A stretch of DNA of 32,000 bases from Candidatus Heimdallarchaeota archaeon. GTDB taxonomy: Archaea > Asgardarchaeota > Heimdallarchaeia > Heimdallarchaeales > Kariarchaeaceae. Positions 3,459 through 29,023 of the stretch are shown here, one piece after another. The number at the start of each line of letters is the position of its first letter. The stretch's first letter is position 1. Made by a program: the position numbers and the translations under genes. The stretch covers positions 900,001 to 932,000 of the forward strand of contig JASBSB010000001.1 of the NCBI GenBank assembly GCA_030149205.1, read 5' to 3'. The notes under the pieces were generated by a model, which was given only the letters and a program-made list of their open reading frames with translations, was not told the origin of the DNA and did not search any database.

Positions 3459-3812
3459 CTAAAAGAACTGACTAAATAGTTGCATAGCTGCAGGAAAACT
3501 GCTCCAGAAAAGGAAGCCTAACACCAAAGCAAATATTACATTCACGATGACCTTCTGTTTCATGGGTATCTCCTCTCTGGGTCTTCGCTTATACCCGATC
3601 CTCTCGAACTGTTCCTCTTGCTCTTGAAGCAGCTCATCACGAAGAAAAAATATTGGAAAGAAAACAAGAAAGAGAGTCCAAATTACCACCCCTACAAGTG
3701 TTAAAACAGCCATCATTTCGGTCTTGGGACTAAAAGACAAGAAAAACATATCGCTGAAAATTATCAGCAGAGCTCTCCATTCACTGATTGTTCGAATCAT
3801 ATTCATATTCAT
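3459..3812 (-). CDS. Putative immunity/partner membrane protein of CT type A
   Basis: Start overlaps the precursor stop (TAATG). 3 hydrophobic segments. Homologous to 12067-12411 (FFPIFFLRDELL vs FFPLIFLRKETL). Confidence 0.8.
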   Translation of the reverse strand: MNMNMIRTISEWRALLIIFSDMFFLSFSPKTEMMAVLTLVGVVIWTLFLVFFPIFFLRDELLQEQEEQFERIGYKRRPREEIPMKQKVIVNVIFALVLGFLFWSSFPAAMQLFSQFF

Positions 3813-4894
3813 TACACCACAGTAATGTATGGGTCAGGATCACATAAATCTTTTATGGCTGCGTTTATTGATAGCATCAACCCATATAACCCATAGATTA
3901 AGGCTAGGGTCTTTAAATAGGGGGCTGCTGTTGCTGCCGCTGAATCTGCTGCTGCTGCAGCAAAAGAAAATGCCTGCTCCCACCATGGTAAAGATTTAAT
4001 TGCCATCAAAATTACTGAATAGATGAAACTTATCACAGCTACGATCACACTAAAAACACCATATGCATCACCATAGAAGATACCTTCTAAAAATGTTAAC
4101 ATTGTCATCGACATTCGACTGTTTAACCAAAAGAAAGCAGCAAAAAAGCGAATTTTGTTTACAAGTCTTCCGGAAGAAGCTAAAGTTGCTGTAAACAGTA
4201 TCCCTGCGATTGCTCCCACAATTGATGGTGCTGCATAATACCTTTCATTTGCGCTAAAATACCCTTCGTGATATGTGGTATGATAAATAGATTCACAAAT
4301 GCCAAGGAAATCGAAATTCAGTGGATTGTTTAGAACCAATTTTAATCTTCTAAAGAACGAGTTAAAAGCTCCTATTGTTTTGGAAAGATAGGCAGCAACA
4401 TACAAGGCACCTAGCACAGGTTCAATCCTCCCATTAAATGTTATTACCATCTTATTAGAGTCTACTGTAAGCTGCTTTAAACTTACTGAATCACAGGAGA
4501 GGAAGAAGTGCCTCTGAGAAACAGAGCTCTTCACCAGTGTGCTGATGAGGTTCCAGCTGATTAGCCCACCCTGTGAGAGGATGCCTTTGCTGTTGCCGTG
4601 TCCCACCCAAATGACTGGGCCAGTCCAGCTCAGGATCTGAGCGTTTGTCAGTGAGAACTGTGTGATGACTGCCATGGGGAAGTTGCTGAGCAGTGTTTGA
4701 ACTGCCTTCTGCTCTGCCATGCTGTTGCCAAAGACAACCAGCAGAGGACTGACCTGTGATGTTGCACTGGACTGTGGGACCAGTGGTGTCAGCAGGTTGA
4801 CGAGAATTGGGCTGCTTATCCCCGACAGGGAGATGGAGAGGACGAGAAACCCAACTGTTGTTAGTTTGAGAAATTGTTCGAATTTCGTAAACAT
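3812..4894 (-). CDS. Full-length precursor: signal/TM + caspase/CHAT-like (clan CD) peptidase domain + hydrophobic variable CT (type A)
   Basis: Likely start ATG 4894 (MFTKFEQFLKL + hydrophobic stretch), ~43 nt downstream of a TATA box; the ORF track extends to 4969. PVIWVGHG (His codon 4598-4600) and HFFLSCDS (Cys codon 4493-4495), followed by VITFNGRIEPVLGA, match clan CD strand-HG / strand-C motifs. The CT is Ala-rich and hydrophobic and ends CDPDPYITVV. Confidence 0.75.
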   Translation of the reverse strand: MFTKFEQFLKLTTVGFLVLSISLSGISSPILVNLLTPLVPQSSATSQVSPLLVVFGNSMAEQKAVQTLLSNFPMAVITQFSLTNAQILSWTGPVIWVGHGNSKGILSQGGLISWNLISTLVKSSVSQRHFFLSCDSVSLKQLTVDSNKMVITFNGRIEPVLGALYVAAYLSKTIGAFNSFFRRLKLVLNNPLNFDFLGICESIYHTTYHEGYFSANERYYAAPSIVGAIAGILFTATLASSGRLVNKIRFFAAFFWLNSRMSMTMLTFLEGIFYGDAYGVFSVIVAVISFIYSVILMAIKSLPWWEQAFSFAAAAADSAAATAAPYLKTLALIYGLYGLMLSINAAIKDLCDPDPYITVV

Positions 4895-4934
4895 GTCCTG
4901 AGAGTATAACTCTCTGAGTAGGTTTAGCATGTGG

Positions 4935-5360
4935 TGTATAAAAACCCTTACCGTTTTTTTTTTTTGCAAACTTTAATTTTTGAAATTCACAATTGTATGA
5001 AAAATATGCTAAGTGTAAAAATTTTTACTGTGAATTTTGCGGTTGCAAAAATATGTTTCACAGGAATATGGATAGAATGCCCTTAAATCGCTAAATAGTC
5101 AAGTCAGTTTTTCTATAGCGTAAATTTTTTTATCTAGGCTGTTAATTGATTTTATAAGTGAAAAATTGTGGATGTAATTCAATAATTTATGTAAACAACT
5201 AATTTTTTACAAACTTATGCATTATCCCTTTATTAAACTTTGTTCATGTTAGCTATCACCAGTTATCCGTAAGTAAGAAACTACCATTTATTGCAAATAA
5301 CGCTGATGTTGAAGGATAGAGGGTTTGATACGTCTAAAGAACCAAAATACTCTAGATTTA
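4935..5360. repeat. ~430-bp duplicated non-coding upstream element, copy 1 (copy 2 at 17731-18159)
   Basis: Colinear alignment by eye over the whole length, e.g. TTTGCAAACTTTA.TTTTTGAAATTCAC.ATTGTAT and CAAGTCAGTTTTT.TATAG; roughly 75-80% identity (estimate). Confidence 0.9.
4937..4944 (-). promoter_or_regulatory. Archaeal TATA box for the precursor operon
   Basis: TTTTTATA on the minus strand; the equivalent box sits at 17733-17740 in the duplicated element. Confidence 0.55.
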
Positions 5361-5422
5361 TTCATGCTGAATTTCAGGTAGATATGCAGGCACTCAGTCT
5401 ATAAACTACATTATCAAGATTT

Positions 5423-7239: not shown

Positions 7240-8079
7240 TTAATCCTTAGAACCTTGCTGCGTCTTTGGTGGTAAATTTACATACCAGGTGCGACCACCC
7301 AATGCCCCTGAATTCCTAGATACCAATTGTTTAAGGGGCTTTTCCACTTGGGGAAGTCCATGAGCAATAATCTCTCGCTCTTTAACAGTAAATTCTGTGC
7401 CATCCTTCTTGGCTATTTTTCCTAGATCAACATTGGACACTCTTTTCTTGTAATTAAGAACATGTAGGATCAGAGTAAAACTATAAAACAAATTCCAGGC
7501 TACTAGACTGGCAGTGAAAAAAGCGACAAAGTAAACATTGTTGGCAACTAGCGGAGACATTATCTGAGGCATTGCAAATAAGGCTAATATTAGTAGTACA
7601 GGATACCCTATAAGTGGAAACCATGAAAGCAGCACTCCACCGATTCTTATCGGTTTGGGTAGCTCATAAAACAACCCCTCACTCTTGAGCGTCTGATGGA
7701 TGCCAGAAATATGTTGACGAAAACGGTCATCTGGGTAGATCTGATACAGCTTGTAAGGCTGTTCCTGTTGGATCAGCCCCAGCACTAAGTTTTCTGAGGA
7801 AGATAGACGGAATGATTTGGATTGATGGTCTAGACCTAAGTAGACAAATCGTTTGTCTATGGAGATCAGCCCCTTTTCTAACAGACTGTAAAGAACACAG
7901 GTCACAAGCCTGACCTTCCCACCATAGAGATAGCCCCAGACCTCAAATTCATGACCTGGGACATCTGGTGCGGTTTTGAGGTGAACACCCAAATTTGTGG
8001 CGATAACAAGAATGAGGGGAGTAAGTGTTCCGGATACTGTAATAACAGCTAGCATAACTGTTAGCAAGAGAAGCAACAT
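7240..8079 (-). CDS. TIGR04222-like membrane protein, copy 1 (partner of CT type D)
   Basis: FEVWGYLYGGKVRLVTCVLYSLLEKGLI resembles the YE.AYL.GG..R....L..L...GL signature; N-terminal TM plus two later TMs. Confidence 0.65.
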   Translation of the reverse strand: MLLLLLTVMLAVITVSGTLTPLILVIATNLGVHLKTAPDVPGHEFEVWGYLYGGKVRLVTCVLYSLLEKGLISIDKRFVYLGLDHQSKSFRLSSSENLVLGLIQQEQPYKLYQIYPDDRFRQHISGIHQTLKSEGLFYELPKPIRIGGVLLSWFPLIGYPVLLILALFAMPQIMSPLVANNVYFVAFFTASLVAWNLFYSFTLILHVLNYKKRVSNVDLGKIAKKDGTEFTVKEREIIAHGLPQVEKPLKQLVSRNSGALGGRTWYVNLPPKTQQGSKD

Positions 8080-8127: not shown

Positions 8128-8835
8128 TTAGATTATCTCCCAAGGCATACTCGCTATTCCGTCCGGGTCGGGCAAATCTGACGCGACTCCCGCAAGAAAC
8201 CACCCCCAGCTTAATAAGCCTGCTAATATTAAGCTAGCTCTAACAATCCAGTATGCAGGGGTACTTGCTGCCATAAGTTCTGAACCGACACCAAGAAGTG
8301 CCTAAAATGATAACCTACATGCTACTGCAACCATAATGGATGCAATGATAGGTACAAGCCCCCATAAAGCACCGAGAAATGCACCTACACTTATTCCTTT
8401 TACCAATAACCCAACGAAATTTGCCATTGGAGTTACAATTGGTAAAATAAACTTTACGATAACGGTCTTGAGTGTACCTTTTATTATTGAGTAAGTAGAA
8501 AGAACTAGACTTGTTAAAAGCAGCACAAAATTTAATGTGTCCCAAAAGGGTTCTGCACCATAAAAATTAGGAAAAGACCCAATAAGAAACAATAGTTTTG
8601 TAGCACCAGATATTAGATTCTGAGTATAAGCCCCCAAATTTTTAGTCAAATACCTCCACGGATTCAATAGGTTCAGGATCTTCGCTAAATTATATGAGAT
8701 AAGATTTGCTCCAATTATTGCATCAATAGCAGTTCCAAAGCTGTAGACATACTTGCCGGTTGCAGAGGTGAGCTCTGTGACCTTGGAAGAGTCACAGGAG
8801 AGGAAGAAGTGCCTCTGAGTAGCAGAACCCTTCAC
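8128..8835 (-). pseudogene. Orphan cassette type D with one in-frame TAG at 8302-8304
   Basis: Starts VKGSATQRHFFLSCDS. After the TAG the frame stays open for 57 codons: ALLGVGSELMAASTPAYWIVRASLILAGLLSWGWFLAGVASDLPDPDGIASMPWEII*. Confidence 0.85.
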
Positions 8836-9001: not shown

Positions 9002-9427
9002 CTATTTTTTCCAACCTTTTATCAGATAATATATTCCTATGAAAGACACTATTATGATATATGCTAGAAGACTTACGGGATAATTGCCTAAAACAAAAAC
9101 CGCATAGATGGATATGGTTTCTAATGTTAGGAAAAGGTTTACCTTTCGATCTTTGCCAAGTTTTTTAGTTTGCAAATACGTCTTCAAAAAATATAAGAGG
9201 ACAACAAAAACAAGAGAATACAAGGTTATGAAACCTGCAATCACAATCTCCTGAAAAATATGGAAGTCGTCTCTTAACACTCTCAAACTGGCTCCCAAGA
9301 AATAAAAAGCAACTAACCCATACCACAGGTTCAGTTTATCCTGATTAGTGAGTGAAGGTGAGGGTTTAGAATTCTCTTCTCCATTAAATTTAAAGGTATA
9401 CAATTTCTGGCCTCCTTGTTTAATCAT
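9002..9427 (-). CDS. 4-TM putative immunity/partner protein of CT type E
   Basis: 141 aa; its start overlaps the stop of 9420-10235 by 8 nt. Confidence 0.75.
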   Translation of the reverse strand: MIKQGGQKLYTFKFNGEENSKPSPSLTNQDKLNLWYGLVAFYFLGASLRVLRDDFHIFQEIVIAGFITLYSLVFVVLLYFLKTYLQTKKLGKDRKVNLFLTLETISIYAVFVLGNYPVSLLAYIIIVSFIGIYYLIKGWKK

Positions 9428-10309
9428 TCCAATCTGTCCTTATTTGGTTGCAGAGAACAAATGCACTATAAATTGTTGCGGCTACAACTACAGCAATAAC
9501 TAATGCGTTTGCTGTAATTTCTACCATAGCACCAGACACTGAGACGATTTTATCCCAAAGACTCACAAATGATTGAATAAATTGGATAATAGTCACTAAT
9601 AAAGGTATAGATGCAACAATATTTGCTGCGAAGATTAATGCATCCCCTGTATTCAAAAAATCTGCCAGTGAGTTGGAAATTAGAGTTACAAAGTTAAAAA
9701 GTGCTGTTGCAACACTAGCTAAAGCAGAACCTATAGCTATAAGTTTAACAGCTCTAGACATAATTCTAACAGCACCCTCTAGATATTTTGCAAGTATGGT
9801 AGCTGCAATAGCTGATAATATTGATAACACCAATGAAATGAGAGATACTCCATCAATTATTAGCTCGATCATAGTGTCCCCTGCACAGGGTTTGGCTTTG
9901 TTTCTAATCACAAAGGTCTGTGTGCATGCTGGCTTTGGTGGAGGAGGAGCACCACCACCTCCTGCATCCAATAGTAACCTCAAAGGCAGGAAAAGGGGGG
10001 GATTTATCCTTAGAGTTAACATTCTGGAGACTAAGGAATCTATCAAAGCACTAATGAAATTGAACTCCAGGTTACGGTTTAAGGCTATCTGAAGGGATAT
10101 GGCATACGCACCAACCAAGCTGTCAATGGTTTGACTAAATGAGACAACCTGTTTTCCAGTAGCCTGTGTTAATGTGGAGATAGTTTTAGAGTCACAGGAG
10201 AGGAAGAAGTGCTTCTGAGCAGCAAAGCTCTTCACCAGTGTGCTGATGAGATCCCAGCTGATCAGCCCAGACTGTGAGAGGATGCCTTTGGTGTTGCATA
10301 CCCACCCAG
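9420..10309 (-). pseudogene. Orphan (5'-truncated) cassette type E: partial peptidase domain + intact CT
   Basis: Homology to the precursor begins at the IWVG codons (~10309). A 2-nt deletion removes the His codon. The open frame NTKGILSQSGLISWDLISTLVKSFAAQKHFFLSCDS... runs to QIRTDWND*. No signal segment. Confidence 0.85.
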
Positions 10310-11242: not shown

Positions 11243-11990
11243 TTACCAGTAATGGGTATTTGCATCGATAAAATCCACTGTGAATAAAGTCAAAAAGTAC
11301 ATTAATCCTGCAAGGGCAGCAGCAGTTAGTAAAACTACTGCTATTGTAGCGACACCATTTTTTACAGTATCAGCATTCAATGTAGCATAAGCCATTGGTT
11401 GAGCCCACCAAACCAGAGATAAAATTTTTGCCGTTATGATTGCACCAATGCCCGTGATTAATTTATATAAGATATATACCATTCGGTGTGGGTTTGGATT
11501 CCTTCCATTTATAAAATCGATTACCCATACCACAAAATCATAAATAAAAGATGCTAAAGTTAATGCACCTGATACAAAAGAAGCCACACTGAAACCTATA
11601 GCCTTATTAGTTAAAGGAAAGAGAAATGCAAATATTGAGAAAAATATATACCCAATAGTATACACCTCTTCACCACCTAGGTACATAGGTAGGATGGAGT
11701 TTGGGTTCATGTTTATCTGCATTATCCTGCTCAGCAACTTACTAAAAAAAGACATGACGCTTTTACCGGCTGAAACCAATATCTGTGCAGAAATAATGTT
11801 TGCAGCAAAAATTGCATCCACCACCATCCCAAAGCTGTAGACATTCTTTCCGGTTACATGGGTGAGCTTTATGACCTTTGAAGAATCACAGGAGAGGAAG
11901 AAATGCCTCTGGGCGGAAGAGCTCTTCACCAGTGTGCTGATGAGGTCCCAGCTGATCAGTCTATTTTGTGAGAGGATGACTCTGTTGTTG
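11243..11990 (-). pseudogene. Orphan (5'-truncated) cassette type B: partial peptidase domain + intact CT
   Basis: Frame ANNRVILSQNRLISWDLISTLVKSSSAQRHFFLSCDS...DANTHYW*; the HG motif is absent and an in-frame TAA lies just upstream. Confidence 0.85.
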
Positions 11991-12066
11991 GCACAAATAA
12001 TTAATTTTTATCCTAAAATTTGAATTGAGATGTAAGTTTATCATTTGACAAACGTGAAAATAGCAG

Positions 12067-12616: not shown

Positions 12617-13018
12617 CTAGGTTTTATAATTTTTTAATCTGTCATCAAAGGTCAGTATTTCATCACAGGCTAATTTCTGTGCGCTGAGAAACACAACACA
12701 ATCTGTAAAAGTCAACGGTTTTCGCTCCCCCATCTCAGATTGAATTAGCTTCCAAGCACTTAGTATCAAATCTTGATTGCTATAGTAAATGCTAATAAAT
12801 TCTTCTGAGAACAACAGCTCACCCCATTGGATTGCCTCGTCAAGTCTAGATACTCTAAGCATGAAATTTATAAATTCATCAATTACATAGTCTGAAATTA
12901 TTAGTTCTGCACTTTTGGTGGCACTTATTTGATCCAAAATGTCATTTGCTGCATCATGAAATTTGTCTCTGGTGTTTGCCAGTCCAACAAGAAATGAGGT
13001 ATCAATGAAATATTTCAT
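12617..13018 (-). CDS. vapC: PIN-domain ribonuclease toxin
   Basis: YFIDTSFL, VIDEF, TFTDC, TFDD acidic PIN motifs; 133 aa. Confidence 0.9.
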   Translation of the reverse strand: MKYFIDTSFLVGLANTRDKFHDAANDILDQISATKSAELIISDYVIDEFINFMLRVSRLDEAIQWGELLFSEEFISIYYSNQDLILSAWKLIQSEMGERKPLTFTDCVVFLSAQKLACDEILTFDDRLKNYKT

Positions 13019-13290
13019 TGCCCCTTCTCACCATACAAGACCTCATCAATCATCTCTGGTGATGTTTCTATGTCCCAGGGTTTCTGAAGCCCCCTGATTC
13101 TCTTGGTTATTCCTTCGACAGGTTTTCTTCTTGCTAACAATAACAGATCCAGATTCTTTTCACCATACTCAATGAGTAATTCTAGGGCTTCCTGCTGGGT
13201 TAATTTAATATCATATCTCAGCAGAATTGAGGCCAGTAGCTTATCAAGGGATCTTTTCGTGTGGTCAGATATCTTTATTGAGCTTGCCAT
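13015..13290 (-). CDS. vapB: VapB-type antitoxin
   Basis: 91 aa; ATGA overlap with vapC; C-terminal TSPEMIDEVLYG is typical of archaeal VapB. Confidence 0.7.
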   Translation of the reverse strand: MASSIKISDHTKRSLDKLLASILLRYDIKLTQQEALELLIEYGEKNLDLLLLARRKPVEGITKRIRGLQKPWDIETSPEMIDEVLYGEKGQ

Positions 13291-15011: not shown

Positions 15012-15510
15012 TTACCAAAAATGTGTCTTTGTATCAACAAAATCCCATAGAAATGATATGAGGTTCGAGATGACCAAAGTAGGTTCAACAGAATTATCTT
15101 TGCTGCAGACGCAATTGAATTTGATGTAGTATCAGCAGCCAATGCCGCATTTGGACTAAACTGATCCCACCAGGTAAAATGAGATATAACGTCTTTAACC
15201 ACTGATTCAATTTCAGAAGTTACTGCAAAGAGTCCTGTTAACACCATATAACGGTGGGTTTTTGCCCTGAATAGAATCAACAATTGTTGAAATCAATAAG
15301 AAGAGGGCTGGTGCTACAACCTAGTAACCACCAGCAAATTTAGCAGCATTTATCGTAATAATCGCACCAGTTGATGGGAACAAAGTCAGAAAAATCGAGA
15401 GTCCAGTTATACCTATTGTATAGACCTCTTCACCACCCAGATACATGGTTACCGAGATGATTGTGCTGATGTTAGGTGCTGAGATTTGACTTAATGTTTC
15501 AGAAGTTTGC
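15012..15510 (-). pseudogene. CT type B-like pseudogene
   Basis: MYLGGEEVYTIG is identical to CT-B. Then an in-frame TAG (15321-15323), two frameshifts, HFTWWDQ...AADT, and the end DFVDTKTHFW* (stop 15012-15014). Confidence 0.8.
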
Positions 15511-15608: not shown

Positions 15609-16400
15609 TTAGTGCGGTTCAATTGCTTTTGAATTTCTAGATATCAATTGTCTAAGGGGCTTTTCCGCTTGGGGAAGTCCATGAGCAATAATTTCTTGCT
15701 CTTTTTCGGTAAAAGCTGTGGCATCCCTCTTGGTAATTTTTCCTAATATGACATTGGACACTCTTTTCTTGTAATAAAGAACACTATAAAATAGAAAAAA
15801 ACTATAAAACATATTCCAAACTACTAGACTGGCAGTGAAAAAAGCGACAAAGTAAAGATAGTTGGCAACTAGCGGAGACATTATCTGAGGCATTGCGAAT
15901 AAGGCTAATATTAGTAGTACAGGATACCCTATAAGTGGAAACCATGAAAGCACCACTCCACCGATTCTTATCGGTTTGGGTAGCTCATAAAACAACCCCT
16001 CGCTTTTGAGCGTCTGGTGGATGTCGGAAATATGTTGAAGAAAACGGTCATCATGGTAGATAAGGTACAGCTTGTAAGGCTGTTCCTGTTGGATCAGCCC
16101 CAGCACTAAGTTTTCTGAGGGAGATAGACGGAATGATTTGGATTGATGGTCTAGACCTGAGTAGACAAATCGTTTGTCTACGGAGATCAGCCCCTTTTCT
16201 AACAGACTGTAAAGAACACAGGTCACAAGCCTGACCTTCCCACCATAGAGATAGCCCCAGACCTCAAATTCATGACCTGGGACATCTGGTGCGGTTTTAA
16301 AGTGAGCACCCAAATTTGTGGCAATCACAAGAATGAGGGGAGTAAGTGTTCCAGATACAGTAATAACAGCTAGCATAACTGTTAATGAGAGAAGCAACAT
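15609..16400 (-). CDS. TIGR04222-like membrane protein, copy 2
   Basis: Near-identical to 7240-8079 except for the C-terminus. Confidence 0.65.
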   Translation of the reverse strand: MLLLSLTVMLAVITVSGTLTPLILVIATNLGAHFKTAPDVPGHEFEVWGYLYGGKVRLVTCVLYSLLEKGLISVDKRFVYSGLDHQSKSFRLSPSENLVLGLIQQEQPYKLYLIYHDDRFLQHISDIHQTLKSEGLFYELPKPIRIGGVVLSWFPLIGYPVLLILALFAMPQIMSPLVANYLYFVAFFTASLVVWNMFYSFFLFYSVLYYKKRVSNVILGKITKRDATAFTEKEQEIIAHGLPQAEKPLRQLISRNSKAIEPH

Positions 16401-16910: not shown

Positions 16911-17702
16911 TTATTCATTTAAACCAATTGTATCTTGTGGAACTACAAACTCAATTCTTCTGCTTTTGGAATTGGAGCTGACCAATTTTCTTAAAGGGTC
17001 TTCTTTTTTAGGCAACCCATGAGCAATAATTTCTCTCTCTTTTTCGGTAAATTCTGTCCCATCCTCTTTGGAAATTTTTTCCAATTTAAGATTAGAGACT
17101 GGAGCCTTGTAATTAAGAAAATCATTGGCTACAACCATGGAAAATACCAAAAACCAAGTTATTTGAAGTACAGCTAAACTCAAATAAAGGTAAAAGGGGA
17201 ACTCAGAACCAAATAATGCAAGAAGATAATAACCTACGACAGGATAACCCGGAAGAAGTACTCCTATGATCCTTAAAGGTCTTGGGAGTTCATAAAACAA
17301 CCCCTCACTCTTGAGCGTCTGGTGGATGCCGGAAATATGTTGAAGAAAACGGTCATCTGAGTAGATCTGATACAGCTTGTAGGGTTGTTTTTCCCCTAAT
17401 AACCTCAGAAATAGGTTTTCAGACTTTGTTAGATTAAACTTATTGGATTGATTATCTGATTTTAGGTGAACAAATCTTTTGTCTATGGAGATTAAATCTT
17501 TTTGTAATAAAGAATAAAGCACACAAGTTACAAGCCTGACCTTACCACCATAGAGATAGCCCCAGACCTCAAATCCATGACCTGGTATCTTTGGTGCAAT
17601 TTTGTAATGACCAACTAATTTGGTTGTAATCACAAGCCCGAATGGAGCAATTGACGTCAATATGGTCAAAATTAACAGGAGTTGTAGGAGAAGGATTGAC
17701 AT
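16911..17702 (-). CDS. TIGR04222-like membrane protein, copy 3 (divergent)
   Basis: Shares FEVWGYLYGGKVRLVTCVLYSLL and IYSDDRFLQHISGIHQTLKSEGLFYELP; preceded by GAGGTAA and a TATA box. Confidence 0.65.
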   Translation of the reverse strand: MSILLLQLLLILTILTSIAPFGLVITTKLVGHYKIAPKIPGHGFEVWGYLYGGKVRLVTCVLYSLLQKDLISIDKRFVHLKSDNQSNKFNLTKSENLFLRLLGEKQPYKLYQIYSDDRFLQHISGIHQTLKSEGLFYELPRPLRIIGVLLPGYPVVGYYLLALFGSEFPFYLYLSLAVLQITWFLVFSMVVANDFLNYKAPVSNLKLEKISKEDGTEFTEKEREIIAHGLPKKEDPLRKLVSSNSKSRRIEFVVPQDTIGLNE

Positions 17703-17730: not shown

Positions 17731-18159
17731 TGTATAAAAACCTTTATCGCTTAGCTTATTTTTTTTTGCAAACTTTATTTTTTGAAATTCACTATTGTAT
17801 AAAAACAAAATCTGTGTGAAATTTTTCACTGTGATATTTACGATTGCAAGAATAATTTTCACAGAAATATAAATAGAGTGCCTTTAAATCATCATTTGAT
17901 CAAGTCAGTTTTTTATAGATCAATTTTTTTATCTGGACTATTAGTTTATTTTATAAGTAATACATTGCAGCTGTACTTCAATAATTTGCATAAGCGACTA
18001 ATTTTTTACAAACCTAGATGTTACCCCTTTATTAAATTTAGTTCATATTGGCCATCACCAATAATCCGTAAATAAGAAACTACCAATTATTGTAAATAAA
18101 GCTGATGTTGAAGGATAGAGGGGTTGATTAGTCTTAAGAACCAAAATACTCTATATTTA
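17731..18159. repeat. ~430-bp duplicated non-coding upstream element, copy 2
   Basis: Colinear with 4935-5360; TATA box at 17733-17740, ~30 nt upstream of ATG 17702. Confidence 0.9.
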
Positions 18160-18535
18160 TTAATCACATATGTTACTGCAATCATAATGGATACAACGAT
18201 AGGTACAAGCCCCTGATTAAAATTTTTAGATGACAACTATGAATAAATCGTGGACACTCAAAAAGATGTGATTCTCATCCTATTCCATTCTGAATAAAAA
18301 GCTTGCACCTGAATCTTTTCCCCTCTCCTATTGCCCATCGAAAAAAAACATACTAATCATCTTGCAAATTACGATCATAAGGTCTTATTTGGAAATGATT
18401 TAGAGTTTAACTGTAATCTTCAATTTTTGGGCATAGATATTATGGTGATTTATACAATGAACTGATGATTACGTTGATTAGTTAGCTAATGAAACTTAGC
18501 AGAGGGATTATATTCTCTGGCAAAATACTTACCTT

Positions 18536-18959: not shown

Positions 18960-20300
18960 AAGAAAAAATCTGAGACCTCCTTGGTATTTTATTTTTTTTA
19001 AGCTTTGGTGATGCGATAAGAGAACAAGTATAATTTCAAAATTCCAAAAATGGAGATGGTCAAAATTTGATGGTCAGAAAATGATTAATTATTTTTTCGT
19101 TGACGCAACTTTGAATTGATTCCTGTTTGCTAGTTCAGGACTACTTGAAATTCAGATTCAATTAGTTACGTATTTACATAAAATAGTTTCCCCTAGCACT
19201 ACAAAAATCTCCGCAATGAATTTTTTGATTAAGTTATTTTCTTGGAATAAAATCAGAATCCAATTTGGTGTTGAAAATATAATATATTATTTGCCTAATT
19301 TATTAGTCAAATCAAATATATATTAGGACAAAAATTATTATTTAGATAAAATTTATTTATTAAATAATTCGAAAACATTAGATATATACTTTACAATTAA
19401 AAAAAAAAGTTTTAAGAGATTGTTAATAATTTTGCTTGAAACTGAATTTTAAGTCAAAAATATATAATCATAAATTAGCTGTAAATCTTTAAAATTATAT
19501 TTCAGATATTTTTAAAATATTTTAAAATTTTGACCAAAATTTAAGACTTCAGCCTAAATAAGAAGCAATTAGAAAGGTAATATTTTTATTAGATATTTAT
19601 TATCAGTATAATTGTTTTATTTTTTTATTATTCAATGAAATATTGATAAACCGTTATTCAAAATTATGCTCTATTTTTAAGGTATGCATAATTATAAATT
19701 TTTAAAAAAATTAATAAAAATATATAAATTAATCAAAATTTTGTTTAATTATATTTTTTTTGTAGAAATTCTCAGAAAATATCAATCAGATTTTATCATT
19801 TATTTAAAATGAAACCACAAGCTATTTTAAGCCATCAAATCTAAAGTTTTTAGTGAAGTAAGGTTCTTGCAATGTTTATCAAATACCAAATAATATAACT
19901 ATATATTTTAATTAAATAAATTTTAGTAAATATATTTTTGCCAATATATAACACTAATTTTTTTAATTCATATTTTCATTTTATTAACTATCAAAAGATA
20001 TTTTTAATTTCTAAATAATTAATATCTCAATAATTATCTAAATAAATATATCAATTACTCGGAAATATAAGTATTTCCAGATTTATCTTGTTAGATAACT
20101 AAAAATATTATACATACATTTTAAATAAATAAATCCGCTTCAATTAAGCAATGCTGTCTCAAACATACATATCCATACATACATCGTATTGCAAATTTTG
20201 TCAAACAGGGGCAATGGTAAATCCAAGTATCAAAATTTATCTTAAAATCCAATCATTATTCATAATTTTGCAGATGAAGTTTTAAATCAATTGTCTCTCC
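18960..20300. other. Very AT-rich intergenic region
   Basis: No ORF of 60 aa or more; two sampled 60-nt lines gave 8% (19681) and 18% (19261) GC. Confidence 0.85.
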
Positions 20301-21641: not shown

Positions 21642-23114
21642 TTGAGGTTATTGAAAGAGGAGATATTCTCAGAAGACCTGAGAGTGCTTAAAGAGTTAGA
21701 AAAACTGTATGGTCAGAAGTCTGAGCAGAGTTGGAAAGGAAAGAGGGGACTTGAATATAATCTTCTTTTAGGGAGGGTCACTAAGCTTAGGATTCAAGGC
21801 GCTGATCCTGTAAGAACCTTTGAGAATTTTCTCTTCATCCCCATCACCATTTTGCTTGGCTTTATTTTTTCGATCGTAGACCCGAATATCCTTGTTTCAA
21901 TTGGAAACCTTATATTTTACGTGTACATTTTCCTCACCGTTGGACAGCGATCAGAATTGGCGTTTCGTGACGGGGTAGTTTTCCTTGTGTTATTGTTTCT
22001 GATCCTTTTTGACAGAAGAATTGAAAAAACGTTACAGAAAGGATTTTGCGTCATTTTAAGATTTTTAAATATCTTCAGTCGTACACCTCTTCTTGGTGGG
22101 GGAATTTCTTTTATAGTTAATTTTTTTATGAGAAGAAACTGTGTGCACAGGTTGAGGTCTATTCCAGAGTCTATAGGAAAGTTAACTGAGTTGCAAGTTT
22201 TGGAACTTACTGACAATGATTTAGAGACTCTCCCCTTGGGCATCGGAAGCCTGATTAAGCTTAGAGAGCTTCTGCTACCTAACAACAACATTGAATATCT
22301 TCCAGCAGAAATTTGTGAGCTTAAAAATTTAGAGGTGTTGAATCTTGAATTCAACAATATTGAGAGGTTACCAGATGAAATGGTGAAATTAACAAGGCTG
22401 AGAGACCTGAATATTAGCAATACAAAGCTTAATCATCTCCCAGAGAGTATTGTGAAGATGAAGTCCCTTGAGAAGATCAACATTACGTTTACAGAGTGTA
22501 AACACCTCCCCTCCTCTATCGGGGAATTAGAAAATCTAAAAGAGCTTCAGGTGTACAGCACGATGATTGAAAAGATTCCTGAAAGTATTTATGATTTGGT
22601 AAATTTAAGGGTGTTAGAGATTGAGTCTAATTTTCAGCCTTGTGATCTATCAGATCGAATAGGAGACTTAAAAAATCTAAAAGTGCTTTCTTGGTGTTCC
22701 GAAAGTGAGAGCATTCCAGAAGCTATTGGGAAACTTTCAAATCTCGAGGTTCTAGATTTACCAGCAAACACATTTAACTCATTACCAGAAAGTGTGGGAC
22801 ATCTGAGTAAACTGAGAGAACTTGAACTAACATATAACCATCTCCACGCACTTCCAACATCGCTGGGTCAGCTCCAAAACCTAAAACGTCTGTCCGCGGC
22901 GTCAAATGAGCTCATAACCCTTCCCAACTCACTTGGTAATTTAAGATCCCTTGAAAGATTAGATGTGTCTGAAAATAGACTTGAAACTCTACCGGAGGAG
23001 TTATTGCGTCTTCCTAAGTTGAGGTGGGTTGATGCAAGCAAAAATCCACTAGATTTCTCTGGTAAGGATATATTGAAAAAATTAAAAGCAAAGGGAGTCA
23101 CTGTGATCAAATGA
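21642..23114 (+). CDS. Leucine-rich repeat protein with a membrane-spanning insert
   Basis: About 13 23-residue LRRs (L..LP.SIG.L..L..L.L..N) from residue 171; hydrophobic segment at residues ~54-170. Confidence 0.9.
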   Translation: MRLLKEEIFSEDLRVLKELEKLYGQKSEQSWKGKRGLEYNLLLGRVTKLRIQGADPVRTFENFLFIPITILLGFIFSIVDPNILVSIGNLIFYVYIFLTVGQRSELAFRDGVVFLVLLFLILFDRRIEKTLQKGFCVILRFLNIFSRTPLLGGGISFIVNFFMRRNCVHRLRSIPESIGKLTELQVLELTDNDLETLPLGIGSLIKLRELLLPNNNIEYLPAEICELKNLEVLNLEFNNIERLPDEMVKLTRLRDLNISNTKLNHLPESIVKMKSLEKINITFTECKHLPSSIGELENLKELQVYSTMIEKIPESIYDLVNLRVLEIESNFQPCDLSDRIGDLKNLKVLSWCSESESIPEAIGKLSNLEVLDLPANTFNSLPESVGHLSKLRELELTYNHLHALPTSLGQLQNLKRLSAASNELITLPNSLGNLRSLERLDVSENRLETLPEELLRLPKLRWVDASKNPLDFSGKDILKKLKAKGVTVIK

Positions 23115-25301: not shown

Positions 25302-26519
25302 TCATGAATCAAGGAAATAGAGAGTTTCACCTTCCAAAATATGCTTTGTACCCTCAAGTTGTCTGTGAATTTTCTTTTCAATTTGGAAACCTGCTTCTTT
25401 CATGATCTCCGAGGTTTTACATCTCAGATTATAGGTTTTGTCCTGTCTTGAATTAAATCCTATGATCATCACGAGCTTCCCATTTGTCTTCAGGATCCTT
25501 TTATATTCTGCAAGGACTATTTTAAGGTCATTGAGGTAATTGTGTATGCGATCTGATTCTGTGCTTCCTCTGAGTCCCATGACCTCAGTATAGAGTTTAT
25601 TTGGATCGTTGACAAATAGTTTTAGTATTTCGTAATCATTTTTCACATAATCAATCATATCAGTATACGGTGGTGAGGTGATGATCACATCAACTGATCT
25701 TGAGGGAAGTGGGATTTTTTTTGCACTGCCCTCCGGTAATACTTTGACACTTCCAATCCTCTGTTTGTTTAGGAAATTGAGAAATGGTGTAATATGAGTC
25801 ACATATTTCTTCAATACTCTTTTGTAAGCTTTAATCAGAGACAGTGATCTGTTTCTAGATGTGTATCCAACTGCATCTAAATAAGCCAGAAAGGCAAGAT
25901 TTGACACTTCTGGTCTTTGATTCAAGTAATCCACTGCTTTAACAGACCTGATACTGGAGAATACATTGCAGTAGTTTTCAGTATCGATTATCAATCCTTT
26001 CAGTTCTTCTGCACTGATGGAGAAAATTTCTGATTTCACCTGTGTCATGAACCTGCAGAAAGGGCTAACATCAAGGGCAATGGAGTCTATCCCTAGGAGC
26101 GCTGCTTCTATGTTGGTTGTCCCACTTCCACACATGGGGTCTAAAACCGTCATCTCTTTTGTGACAGGAATTGAGTTGAGAATGCCTCTGATAAGCTGAG
26201 GATGGAATTTTCCCTTATATGGAAAAATACCATGACTTGCATAACGAATCGCATATCTGTACTTTCTCTGGTACTCTTGTTGCTTTGCGCTTCCAAAAAA
26301 ATTTGTGTTTGTAGTGTTACACATCTTGTAATGGTCAGTTTGGGTGTTTCCGATGGTTTTGAAATAACCTGCCCTTGTTAACAGCTCCGTCTGTGAAAGT
26401 GAATTATATTCAAGGTACGCAAGATGGAAATCAGATTCTTGTGTGATGTTTGGGATCAGTTGATCTGAGACGGGGAGTAACTGTTCTAACTTGTGCTTGT
26501 ATGTCGTCTCAGGTATCAC
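25302..26519 (-). CDS. Amino-DNA methyltransferase (probably N4-cytosine, alpha-type motif order)
   Basis: HGIFPYKGKFHPQL, motif I LDPMCGSGTT, catalytic TSPPY near the C-terminus. Confidence 0.85.
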   Translation of the reverse strand: MIPETTYKHKLEQLLPVSDQLIPNITQESDFHLAYLEYNSLSQTELLTRAGYFKTIGNTQTDHYKMCNTTNTNFFGSAKQQEYQRKYRYAIRYASHGIFPYKGKFHPQLIRGILNSIPVTKEMTVLDPMCGSGTTNIEAALLGIDSIALDVSPFCRFMTQVKSEIFSISAEELKGLIIDTENYCNVFSSIRSVKAVDYLNQRPEVSNLAFLAYLDAVGYTSRNRSLSLIKAYKRVLKKYVTHITPFLNFLNKQRIGSVKVLPEGSAKKIPLPSRSVDVIITSPPYTDMIDYVKNDYEILKLFVNDPNKLYTEVMGLRGSTESDRIHNYLNDLKIVLAEYKRILKTNGKLVMIIGFNSRQDKTYNLRCKTSEIMKEAGFQIEKKIHRQLEGTKHILEGETLYFLDS

Positions 26520-26622: not shown

Positions 26623-27432
26623 GTGACTATCTTGGATCCTGTGGTTCGCAACAACATTAAGATTTACATCAATGCGACTATAGACACTGCTCTCAACAAG
26701 TATGACAGGTCAATTATCACTGACCTCATGATAAAAGACACCCTGTTAAATCCGGAGAGAGGGATGTATAAACCCTTCCACCAGGCTTTGATTCCGACTG
26801 AGCTATTTAGATTTCAGGGTTTTTTTCGGTCCCTTGAGACTTCAATTGGGGCAGGGATATTTGAGTTTATGGCAAAGGAGATATCTTTGATGAACAAAGC
26901 CAAATGGTTGGAGGTCAAGAAATCAAGATTCTCAGTTACAAATGATAGGAGAGTTACTGGATTTATAGATGAATACATTGAATCCTTAGAATCACAGAAA
27001 AAGAAAGGTCAGGTTGATTATTCCCTCCCTGAATTTCCAGTTGGAAGTTCTTCTGAGACAGTTCATCAACAGGTAGATCTTTATCTTAAGAACAGTATGG
27101 GAGAGGAGTATTTCATCGAGATCAAATCACCCAAGCCTAATAAGGACCAATGTAAAGCGACAGTTCGGAAGTTGTTAAAGTTTAAAGCAACCTATCCTTC
27201 CTGCAAAATAATCTATGGATTGACCTTTAATCCCTATGGTGAGGAAAGGTCAAAATTTAAGAACAGTTATATCCCGTATTATTTTGATATAAATGACTCT
27301 GAGACCCTGAAGATTGGGAGTGAGTTTTGGGATTTTTTGGGAGGAGATGGTGTATACCAAGAGCTTCTTGAGGTGTTCAGCGAAATTATGGTTGATCGCA
27401 AGGATGAGATCAAGCAAAAACTCATGGGATGA
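26623..27432 (+). CDS. TdeIII/MjaII-like type II restriction endonuclease
   Basis: KPFHQAL, RSLETSIG, VDLYL...IEIKSPKPNK (PD-(D/E)XK), YNP-like FNPYGE. Start uncertain; GTG near 26623 preferred over 26491, which overlaps the divergent methyltransferase. Confidence 0.8.
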   Translation: MTILDPVVRNNIKIYINATIDTALNKYDRSIITDLMIKDTLLNPERGMYKPFHQALIPTELFRFQGFFRSLETSIGAGIFEFMAKEISLMNKAKWLEVKKSRFSVTNDRRVTGFIDEYIESLESQKKKGQVDYSLPEFPVGSSSETVHQQVDLYLKNSMGEEYFIEIKSPKPNKDQCKATVRKLLKFKATYPSCKIIYGLTFNPYGEERSKFKNSYIPYYFDINDSETLKIGSEFWDFLGGDGVYQELLEVFSEIMVDRKDEIKQKLMG

Positions 27433-27433
27433 G

Positions 27434-29023
27434 ATGCAAGTGGTGTTATTGACAATCAAGGAGGCAGCAAAGCGATTCAAAACAAAGACCAGTAATATTC
27501 GATACCTCCTAGATTATCACCCCGACAAAATCCATAGATATGATTCTGAAGGGAATATAATTCAAAAGGGTCAGTCTCGTCAGATCTTGTTGTCTCTAGA
27601 AGAACTTGAGGCTTATTTTCAGAGAAGAGAGTCAGAAATGCTTGATGATGAGGTCAGTCATCAAGAGACGAACAATTCGATAGGTTTTCGCCATCTTTCA
27701 GATGCTGAGAGGACGAAGCATGTCCATGGGTTACATCCATATATGGGAAAGTTTATTCCACAGCTTGCGCATTACTATCTTTCAAAAAACTTTAGAAAAG
27801 GAGACATCATTTTAGACCCCTTCGCAGGTTCTGGAACCACCTTGGTTGAGGGAAACACACTTTCAATGCATACAATTGGTGTTGATATTGCAGAATTTAA
27901 CACCATATTGATGCGGGCTAAGTTACAGCGGTATAACCTTACCCTGATGGAGTTTGAGGTCAGACATATCTTAGACAGGTTGACGAGGTTCAGTCATCAT
28001 CATTGGAATTTAAAAGATTTAAAGAAAGGGACATTATCCCAGCAGCAATTATCTAAATTCAGGTCTCTTCTTTTGGGAGAACCTCAGGGTGTCCTTTCAC
28101 ATTTTGAGGAAGGTGCAAGCGGAGCCAACAATCTTTCAGATGAAGTAGATGTAGAAGGGATAAGAAGACTGTTAGAAATGGGGACGGATGTACCAGACCT
28201 ACCTCCTTTTCAGACGCCTCATTCAGAATATTTTGCGAGTTGGTTAGCACCTCGAACCAACATAGAGGCAAACTATTACCTGAATCTTATCCCAGACTAT
28301 CATTATCAAGACCTTTTGAAGGTAATTCTTAGCTCTGCAATCAGGTCTTCAAGGTTGATAAAACACATTGATCTAACACGCCCTAAGGAACCTCTCAAAC
28401 CCGATGAGGAATATGTGTGTGTGAAGCATCGTGGGAGACTATGCCGTCCAATTACTGAGCTGTTAAAGTGGATTAGAACCTACAGCGTTGGCAAGAAGGG
28501 TGTTATCAACCGTATAAAGGAGTTTGACAAGCTTCGCACCTCCAGTGAGGTTCATGTGATCAATGCTGACTCGACATTGGTTGACCTGTTCAATGAGTTA
28601 AGTCGAGAACACTCAGGATCAGTGACATCAGAAAGATTTATTGATGGAATTTTCACTTCACCCCCTTATGTTGGGATCATAGACTATCATCAACAGCACA
28701 GGTATGCCTATGAGATCTTTGACCTTGCATTTAATGAGGAGGAAGAGATAGGAGCAGCGAAGTATGGGAGTTCTCAGAAGGCACAAAAAACGTATCAAGA
28801 ACTAATTTCAAAGGTTCTTCTTAATGTTAAGAGATTTTTGAAGGTGGATTCCCTTGTGTTTATAGTTGCAAATGACAGATACAATCTCTATCCAGCGATA
28901 TTTGAAGCAAGCGGTTATGAGCTTGTTGATGAGGAGAAGCGTGGAGTCTACAAGAGAGCAGATTCTGGGGGCGCTCGTGCAAATTATTTAGAAAGTATAT
29001 TCAAGATTAAACCGATATTCTAA
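27434..29023 (+). CDS. N4-cytosine-type DNA methyltransferase with N-terminal HTH
   Basis: ATG 1 nt after the endonuclease stop; LLTIKEAA...SNIRYLL HTH-like start; HGLHPYMGKFIPQL, LDPFAGSGTT, FTSPPY. Confidence 0.88.
   Translation: MQVVLLTIKEAAKRFKTKTSNIRYLLDYHPDKIHRYDSEGNIIQKGQSRQILLSLEELEAYFQRRESEMLDDEVSHQETNNSIGFRHLSDAERTKHVHGLHPYMGKFIPQLAHYYLSKNFRKGDIILDPFAGSGTTLVEGNTLSMHTIGVDIAEFNTILMRAKLQRYNLTLMEFEVRHILDRLTRFSHHHWNLKDLKKGTLSQQQLSKFRSLLLGEPQGVLSHFEEGASGANNLSDEVDVEGIRRLLEMGTDVPDLPPFQTPHSEYFASWLAPRTNIEANYYLNLIPDYHYQDLLKVILSSAIRSSRLIKHIDLTRPKEPLKPDEEYVCVKHRGRLCRPITELLKWIRTYSVGKKGVINRIKEFDKLRTSSEVHVINADSTLVDLFNELSREHSGSVTSERFIDGIFTSPPYVGIIDYHQQHRYAYEIFDLAFNEEEEIGAAKYGSSQKAQKTYQELISKVLLNVKRFLKVDSLVFIVANDRYNLYPAIFEASGYELVDEEKRGVYKRADSGGARANYLESIFKIKPIF

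Follow-up and report, generated by a model that had tools for sequence, protein, structure and literature searches.

The stretch analysed here, called the window throughout, comprises 32,000 nucleotides of Candidatus Heimdallarchaeota archaeon (positions 900,001 to 932,000 of contig JASBSB010000001.1, assembly GCA_030149205.1). Its minus strand carries an open reading frame (ORF) at 3812-4969 that encloses the interval 4290-4760, to which a first-pass annotation of the DNA had assigned a caspase/CHAT-like (clan CD) His-Cys domain, proposed to autocleave at a conserved Leu-Gly site and so free the C-terminal part of its precursor. The corresponding entry in the protein collection, P0002, is 372 aa long with its start ATG at 4930, and residues of the window protein are numbered accordingly. 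All the motifs quoted in that annotation (LLVVFG, VIWVGHG, GLISWNLISTL, HFFLSCDS, VITFNGRIEPVLGA and NPLNFDFLG) occur in the translation of the ORF, and the spacing of 35 residues it gave for the His and the Cys is that between His111 and Cys146, whose codons were located in the window. From its N-terminus the protein runs through a basic and then hydrophobic stretch, an alpha/beta head of ~150 residues, a short linker and a very hydrophobic tail (Table 1).

The head is predicted by AlphaFold2 to adopt a clan-CD fold. Model 1, covering residues 55-237 (predicted local distance difference test (pLDDT) 88.5, predicted template modelling score 0.84), is built in the order strand 1, helix, strand 2, helix, strand 3 with the His, hairpin, helix, strand 4 with the Cys, helix, strand 5 and two final helices. 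In a Foldseek search of the Protein Data Bank (PDB) this model matched the SAVED-CHAT protease 8tl0 first (E 5.8e-5, template modelling (TM) score 0.59), followed by the MARTX cysteine protease domains (CPDs) of Vibrio cholerae and V. vulnificus, Raptor, caspase-7 and the TcdB protease domain, and all five matches at E <= 0.001 are CHAT or MARTX CPD chains. VIA, a comparison independent of Foldseek, likewise ranked 8tl0_A at the top (Z 11.7, 151 residues aligned, root-mean-square deviation 3.5), above legumain (8.9), OaAEP1 (8.8), metacaspase 4 (8.7), caspase-8 (8.3) and the pre-cleavage MARTX domain 3fzy (8.1); the GPI8/GPI transamidase subunit (7.6) and separase also match, within a clan-CD range of Z 7-9. 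Neighbours in the ESM Atlas are CHAT and caspase clusters at TM 0.60-0.69. Model 2, of residues 30-245 of P0035, a member 26% identical (pLDDT 89.4), again places 8tl0_A at the top (Z 9.9), and in both models 8tl0 leads the next row by 1.7-2.8 Z units. The aligned stretch of 8tl0, residues 304-491, spans the catalytic residues H375 and C422 reported for SAVED-CHAT (bioRxiv 10.1101/2023.06.23.546230).

In the window protein strand 3 leads into VIWVGHG and strand 4 into FFLSCDS, giving a His-Gly and then a small residue-Cys, with the His first. This is the signature of clan CD, in which each of the two motifs stands after a hydrophobic strand, and His111 and Cys146 are candidates for the catalytic dyad of what would be a cysteine protease. 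Because CHAT stands out in both models, because the Foldseek and Atlas lists agree, and because of the position and order of the dyad, the models support the head as a stripped-down caspase/CHAT-like clan-CD domain of ~150 residues, and the fold claim of the first-pass annotation is borne out. Structurally the head matches CHAT, caspases and CPDs; its profile similarity to CHAT is not significant. A peptidase of the DJ-1/PfpI type (clan PC) was considered and rejected, since DJ-1 reaches Z 7.8 in model 2 but CHAT scores higher, and since in clan PC the Cys precedes the His.

By sequence the head belongs to no known family. Pfam and NCBIfam scans gave nothing significant for the 372-aa protein, its neighbours or 129 family members, and the head protein matched no Pfam family at E up to 1. 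The only weak Pfam matches among the 129 members were to Peptidase_C25 and C13; Peptidase_C25 (5 members), which also belongs to clan CD, is the sole Pfam family weakly matched by several members. Pfam CHAT (PF12770) gave no match at E up to 1 for the window protein, is not among the 25 commonest families in the 129 members, and is represented by no protein in the archaeon's own genome. Profile searches against PDB sequences with 7- and 129-sequence alignments returned chance-level matches only (Hfq, glutamate racemase, designed proteins), and a feature search of the ESM Atlas returned unnamed clusters only. Word-indexed homologue searches with head and tail recovered only the protein itself, and an exhaustive profile search was needed to find relatives. 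Where these are named in their source annotation the name is 'hypothetical protein', and a literature search found no paper describing this Asgard family.

The exhaustive search covered 1.84 billion proteins with a profile built from paralogues and 5'-truncated copies of the same genome, which holds two further full-length paralogues and several truncated copies. It yielded 282 cluster representatives at E <= 0.001, 99 of them at E <= 1e-10; most are 320-400 aa long with the domain N-terminal. In genome searches the family turned up only in Asgard archaea, where it occurs in 125 of 400 sampled genomes and 44 of 85 genera, often in several or many copies per genome, and related loci were obtained from Heimdallarchaeota, Thorarchaeota and Helarchaeota. 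The window's own genome is archaeal by its small-subunit rRNA (SSU) as well, which scores 1198 bits with the archaeal model and 1010 with the bacterial one. The conservation of the motifs, counted in an alignment of 129 family representatives, is far beyond chance. Cys146 is invariant (129/129) and His111 nearly so (127/129), each preceded by four or five hydrophobic residues; the Gly directly after the His (Gly112) is kept in 112 and replaced by Ser in 15, and Gly116 (123/129), Trp126 (113/129), Ser148 (116/129) and Phe165 (107/129) are also strongly conserved. At position 170 the family has Asp in 123 of 129 and Glu in four, the window protein among the latter.

Features upstream of the head point to export. 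A hydrophobic segment precedes it in 102 of 132 near-full-domain members (114 have at least 15 upstream residues), and in 107 members an A-[LF]-S-x-P motif follows that segment just before strand 1. The motif fits a signal-peptidase site behind a cleaved Sec signal, so the head would be extracytoplasmic. Membrane helices, from one to seven, are predicted in 116 of the 119 tails of at least 60 aa, which fall into 48 clusters. Heads and tails are reassorted: heads 65-76% identical carry tails without detectable similarity, and tails 45-48% identical are found on heads only 24-25% identical. In related loci, an ORF on the same strand follows closely downstream of 24 of 34 family genes, and in 20 of the 24 it is predicted to have membrane helices. 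In the window this position is taken by a gene for a 117-aa membrane protein to which a Pfam scan assigned no family. Among the hits of the profile search, tail A, the tail of the full-length gene, has a single relative, P0033, a type-A cassette of another genome.

Longer members have Ig-like or fibronectin-type domains after the head, some of them being very long surface proteins, and show weak HINT or pretoxin-HINT signals, a hint that some relatives perhaps carry a second processing domain. P0023 and P0034, both from other genomes, show weak pretoxin-HINT (E 0.008) and Hint (E 0.005) signals as well as Big_7 domains downstream of the head.

The reassortment has a visible counterpart in the window, which contains 5'-truncated orphan cassettes of types E, B and D and a frameshifted B-type remnant. 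A DNA box that takes in the Cys together with the helix and strand preceding it is shared by the full-length gene and cassettes E and B: box 4488-4596 has 90% identity to 10189-10297 and 84% to 11883-11991. In pairs of nearly identical sequences the identity is lost immediately past the Cys motif, and the boundary between constant and variable sequence lies there and not at the Leu of the head/tail junction. Since the box ends at the Cys codon, a cassette brings with it the half of the protease that follows the Cys, then the junction and the tail and, in most cases, the gene of a membrane protein downstream. One more His-less cassette, L005, in which LPCDS replaces LSCDS, lies on the plus strand ~5.9-6.5 kb before the start of the window; spare cassettes thus flank the full-length gene on both sides.

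What is conserved at the junction differs from the Leu-Gly site first proposed. Junctions of the window copies were set by hmmalign to the family profile, except for that of the remnant, a B-type copy at ~15 kb whose junction M/Y (the slash marks the proposed cut) follows from its likeness to type B. In the family the junction residue is Leu in 112 of 121 aligned sequences and Met in 5, and the Leu is fixed 14 residues beyond a conserved Arg (Arg195; Arg in 73/129). The residue before it is Pro (50), Leu (15), Phe (15) or Tyr (10), the residue after it Ala (22), Tyr (22), Gly (20), Arg (9) or Leu (9), and family similarity goes no further than this Leu. P0033, which is 50% identical to the type A protein from just after the His to the C-terminus, has the junction L/Y, compared with which type A is 14 residues longer at the point immediately behind the Leu. 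The single Leu at fixed spacing makes the conserved feature a Leu or Met followed by an indel-tolerant linker, and no Leu-Gly pair is conserved; of the site first proposed, one Leu at the head/tail junction stands and the Gly does not. Leu209-Gly210 of type A (4301-4306) was placed correctly at the outset, but in three of five copies (types B and D by the profile alignment, the remnant by its likeness to type B) the Leu-Gly registration was wrong: the pair given for type B (11675-11680) lies two residues downstream of the aligned junction, and the NLG of type D lies 17 residues upstream of it, inside a helix. Type E, which had been set apart as an exception, has a canonical L/R junction, and the supposedly shared 'NP' motif dissolves in the wider family into Gly or Asn followed by Pro, Lys or Glu.

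Beyond the Leu, many members with otherwise unrelated tails share a spacer with a Gly run, which reads hydrophobic, Asp/Glu-Pro/Asp, 4-7 Gly, then Pro/Ser-rich; in cassette E it is LLDAGGGGAPPPP (9981-9900).

The models suggest where this Leu lies. Model 1 is confident at Leu209, and its pLDDT falls steeply within a few residues; model 2 has a pLDDT of 90 over residues 151-160, which drops to less than 50 in the poly-Gly that comes next. Besides an N-terminal pair, the only isolated beta-bridges of model 2 are at Gly60, which adjoins His59, at Asp117, the conserved Asp after strand 5, and at Pro155 and Arg157, one on each side of the junction Leu156. The pattern recurs in model 1, in whose numbering the bridges are at His57-Gly58, residue 114 and residue 156. 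Since a pairing of Pro155 with Arg157 is impossible, the simplest partners for these two residues, as we read the secondary-structure strings, would be the His-Gly segment and the loop that follows strand 5. In complexes of caspases with their substrates, as in clan-CD enzymes generally, the backbone of substrate residues P1-P3 is held as a strand between these same segments, and the predicted bridges are what would be expected if the junction lay substrate-like between them. C80 domains, for their part, self-process after Leu. Together with the established cleavage by CHAT proteases behind Leu, Met or Ala (PMC11106740), the modelled bridges make autocleavage at the junction Leu plausible.

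The best explanation in our view, which we hold tentatively and at slightly under an even chance, is that the exported head processes itself by cutting after the Leu at fixed spacing. Sec export would put the head outside the membrane and the linker would dock in the substrate cleft of that very head, placing at P1 the Leu or, in some cassettes, a Met; we infer that the Cys would then cut after this residue and part the head from a membrane-embedded tail, whose role once freed may be that of a toxin or recognition module. New tails would enter by recombination at the high-identity box, each cassette supplying the parts listed above, in a layout that resembles that of polymorphic toxin/immunity or self-recognition loci. 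Possible but more doubtful is the fuller proposal of an undescribed Asgard self-processing caspase-like module whose catalytic domain is split, the His half being constant and the Cys-distal, substrate-binding half travelling in the cassette with the cut site, the tail and the partner.

Several results weigh against self-processing. In model 2 generic alpha/beta folds (sugar-binding proteins, flavodoxin, DJ-1) reach Z ~8, close to legumain at 8.0, and only CHAT stands out, which leaves the modelled clan-CD assignment without a wide margin over all other folds; alignment by hhalign with 14 Asgard CHAT domains was not significant (P 0.064), its weak best local match pairing GHG with the CHAT His and LSCDS with CHAT LSAC. 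The residue after the Leu is variable, which is tolerable for a CHAT-like enzyme but gives no motif support, and the Leu could be kept as the last element packing on the core, equivalent to strand 6. With the breakpoint at the Cys, the Leu is no genetic module boundary. A tail made of a multi-helix membrane segment would make the proposed freeing of the C-terminal part no simple release of a soluble toxin, and such a tail would insert in the producer's own membrane, leaving its delivery after the cut unexplained. The variable post-Leu residue and the module boundary at the Cys would also suit an active protease of clan CD whose action is extracellular and in trans, on a neighbour's surface or S-layer protein, a partner protein or another precursor, the Leu being a structural cap and the tail an attached membrane anchor or effector. 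The fold and the conservation of the dyad are equally expected of such an enzyme, as is the export of the head, and in the very long surface proteins with Ig-like or fibronectin-type domains a cut at the Leu would detach the head from all the rest. A structural cap, however, does not account for bridged linker residues that flank the Leu when the remaining isolated bridges adjoin the candidate catalytic His and lie at the conserved Asp or beside it. Moreover, a hydrophobic P4-P1 stretch with Leu or Met at its end fits the P1 preferences of CHAT and C80 (PMC11106740), and caspase-like domains in the same position in polymorphic toxins have been read as self-releasing (PMC3482391). We consider action in trans rather unlikely.

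The standing of the generic folds in model 2 (Z 7.7-8.2 against 8.0 for legumain) bears also on whether the head is a peptidase at all. It might be a minimal three-layer alpha/beta (flavodoxin-like) module, a constant platform on which the variable tails are exported and folded, its His, Cys and Asp, three conserved polar residues atop strands 3, 4 and 5, forming a metal- or ligand-binding site or a redox or thioester site, and such a role would agree with the lack of significant peptidase sequence matches in Pfam, NCBIfam and PDB. Against it stand the first rank of CHAT in both models, 1.7-2.8 Z units ahead, the clan-CD identity of all five Foldseek matches at E <= 0.001, the CHAT and caspase neighbours in the Atlas, and a dyad with clan-CD signature, order and strand positions, and we regard a non-peptidase as distinctly unlikely. 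Legumain-type ligases and GPI transamidase, which are transpeptidases, raise a further alternative, in which an acyl-enzyme formed at the junction Leu would pass the head or another protein to an acceptor rather than to water. Among the structural neighbours are indeed OaAEP1, a ligase (Z 8.8), and a subunit of the GPI transamidase (Z 7.6), and many members have their junction within a few residues of the membrane surface. These two match no better than hydrolytic caspases and legumain, however, no acceptor, anchor signal or partner enzyme is evident, and the polymorphism of the tails would be left unexplained; we consider transpeptidation very improbable.

The closest structural kin of the head are the CHAT proteases, such as SAVED-CHAT of Haliangium ochraceum (8tl0) and TPR-CHAT/Csx29 of type III-E CRISPR systems, the best structural match of both models. 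The head and these proteases share the His-then-Cys dyad after consecutive hydrophobic strands, and the junction Leu or Met would agree with the known P1 residues Leu, Met and Ala of CHAT (PMC11106740). The Asgard head differs in its size (~150 residues, where the Pfam CHAT profile has ~290 positions) and in having no Pfam CHAT match; it would be exported, whereas CHAT is cytoplasmic, it has no SAVED or TPR sensor, and its candidate substrate is its own C-terminal linker. The resemblance to C80 CPDs of MARTX and large clostridial toxins (3eeb, 3fzy, 3pee) is weaker than that to CHAT (Foldseek E 1e-3 to 1e-2, Z 8.1 to 3fzy, TM 0.36-0.42). There is no Pfam match to Peptidase C80 at E up to 1, and the candidate cut is C-terminal to the head, where C80 cuts N-terminally. 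The modelled head lacks the inositol-hexakisphosphate beta-flap of that family, appearing to end ~60 residues past the Cys with two helices and to be too small for such a flap.

In genetic organization the family resembles the bacterial polymorphic toxins, to our knowledge a class of toxin and self-recognition systems that is well known in bacteria and barely described in archaea. The family has a constant N-terminal part and exchangeable, unrelated C-terminal modules. There are stand-alone 5'-truncated cassettes (8835, 10295, 11989 and L005), and the box of the full gene is 84-90% identical in cassettes E and B. Caspase-like domains just upstream of the toxin domain have been proposed as the releasing peptidases of such toxins (Zhang, de Souza, Anantharaman, Iyer and Aravind 2012, PMC3482391), and the arrangement here is similar in placing a clan-CD-like domain directly upstream of the variable module, in its apparent Sec-dependent export, in the stand-alone tail-replacement cassettes and in a candidate gene-by-gene partner downstream. 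It differs in being archaeal, in that the peptidase is the entire constant part, without repeats or trafficking domains, in variable modules that are no soluble enzymes but membrane segments of several helices, from unknown families, and in a breakpoint that runs through the peptidase at the Cys. As in the orphan arrays of CdiA-CT/CdiI, Rhs and MafB, truncated tail and partner cassettes carry a short high-identity box of the expressed gene; unlike there, the box lies inside the catalytic domain, so that the cassettes hold the Cys half without the His, and cassettes lie on both sides of the full-length gene and not downstream only.

The family would be a small sequence-orphan branch of the caspase/CHAT fold. 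The protease fold to which eukaryotic caspases, metacaspases and separase belong would gain in it a minimal, exported member from the lineage closest to eukaryotes. A single short protein is enough to put conflict between archaeal cells, or kin recognition, to the test, and the corrected site, one Leu at fixed spacing where a Leu-Gly pair had been given, shows experimenters which residue they should mutate.

Table 1. Features of the full-length gene and its cassettes in the window (positions within the window; a slash marks the candidate cut).
Feature	Coordinates	Strand	Evidence or remark
Full-length gene, type A: signal peptide, clan-CD-like head, junction, hydrophobic tail	3812..4930	-	ORF and translation
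Putative N-terminal export signal, residues 1-56, basic stretch and hydrophobic segment	4763..4930	-	
Predicted miniature caspase/CHAT-like (clan CD) head, residues 57-210	4301..4762	-	AlphaFold2 pLDDT 88.5; CHAT/clan-CD structural matches
His111 codon, candidate catalytic His in VIWVGHG	4598..4600	-	Right after strand 3; 127/129 representatives
Cys146 codon, candidate catalytic Cys in FFLSCDS	4493..4495	-	After strand 4; 129/129 representatives
Glu170 codon, family Asp position in G-x-I-D-A motif after strand 5	4421..4423	-	
Leu209 codon, type A junction L/G: the conserved Leu, candidate P1, with which conservation of the head ends	4304..4306	-	
Variable hydrophobic tail, type A, residues 211-372	3815..4300	-	~160 residues, very hydrophobic
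Gene for 117-aa membrane protein downstream, candidate cognate partner of tail A	3459..3812	-	ORF abuts stop codon
High-identity DNA box: helix and strand before the Cys, and the Cys	4488..4596	-	84-90% identical in orphan cassettes E and B
Orphan cassette D, begins shortly before the Cys strand	8302..8835	-	
Type D junction L/I, codon	8584..8586	-	
Orphan cassette E, begins just after the lost His-Gly; poly-Gly/Pro spacer after the junction	9420..10295	-	
Type E junction L/R, codon	9981..9983	-	
Orphan cassette B, begins after the His position	11243..11989	-	
Type B junction M/Y, codon	11684..11686	-	
Frameshifted B-type tail remnant, VTM/YLGGEE...	15012..15510	-	Three-frame translation; DNA repeat D14

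Other features of the window accompany the cassettes. Three paralogous membrane proteins lie among them on the minus strand (7240-8079, 15609-16400 and 16911-17702), with sub-threshold similarity to TIGR04222 (first E 3e-8) and patchwork DNA identity of 69-97%. The ~370-nt region upstream of the full-length gene (5000-5372) is repeated at 17801-18171 with 75-90% identity, there upstream of a TIGR04222-like membrane-protein gene, and a partial third copy lies at 1711-1829. Inside the array, a PIN-domain (VapC-like) gene (12617-13290, minus strand; Pfam PIN E 4e-13) has a small overlapping upstream ORF, and together the two look like a toxin-antitoxin pair. Between the array and the next genes lies 1 kb of 19.7% G+C (19001-20000). 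The array is flanked by genes for a leucine-rich-repeat protein and two DNA-methylase-domain proteins (21642-23114, plus strand; 25302-26519, minus strand; 27314-29023, plus strand), which suggests a variable or defence-type island.

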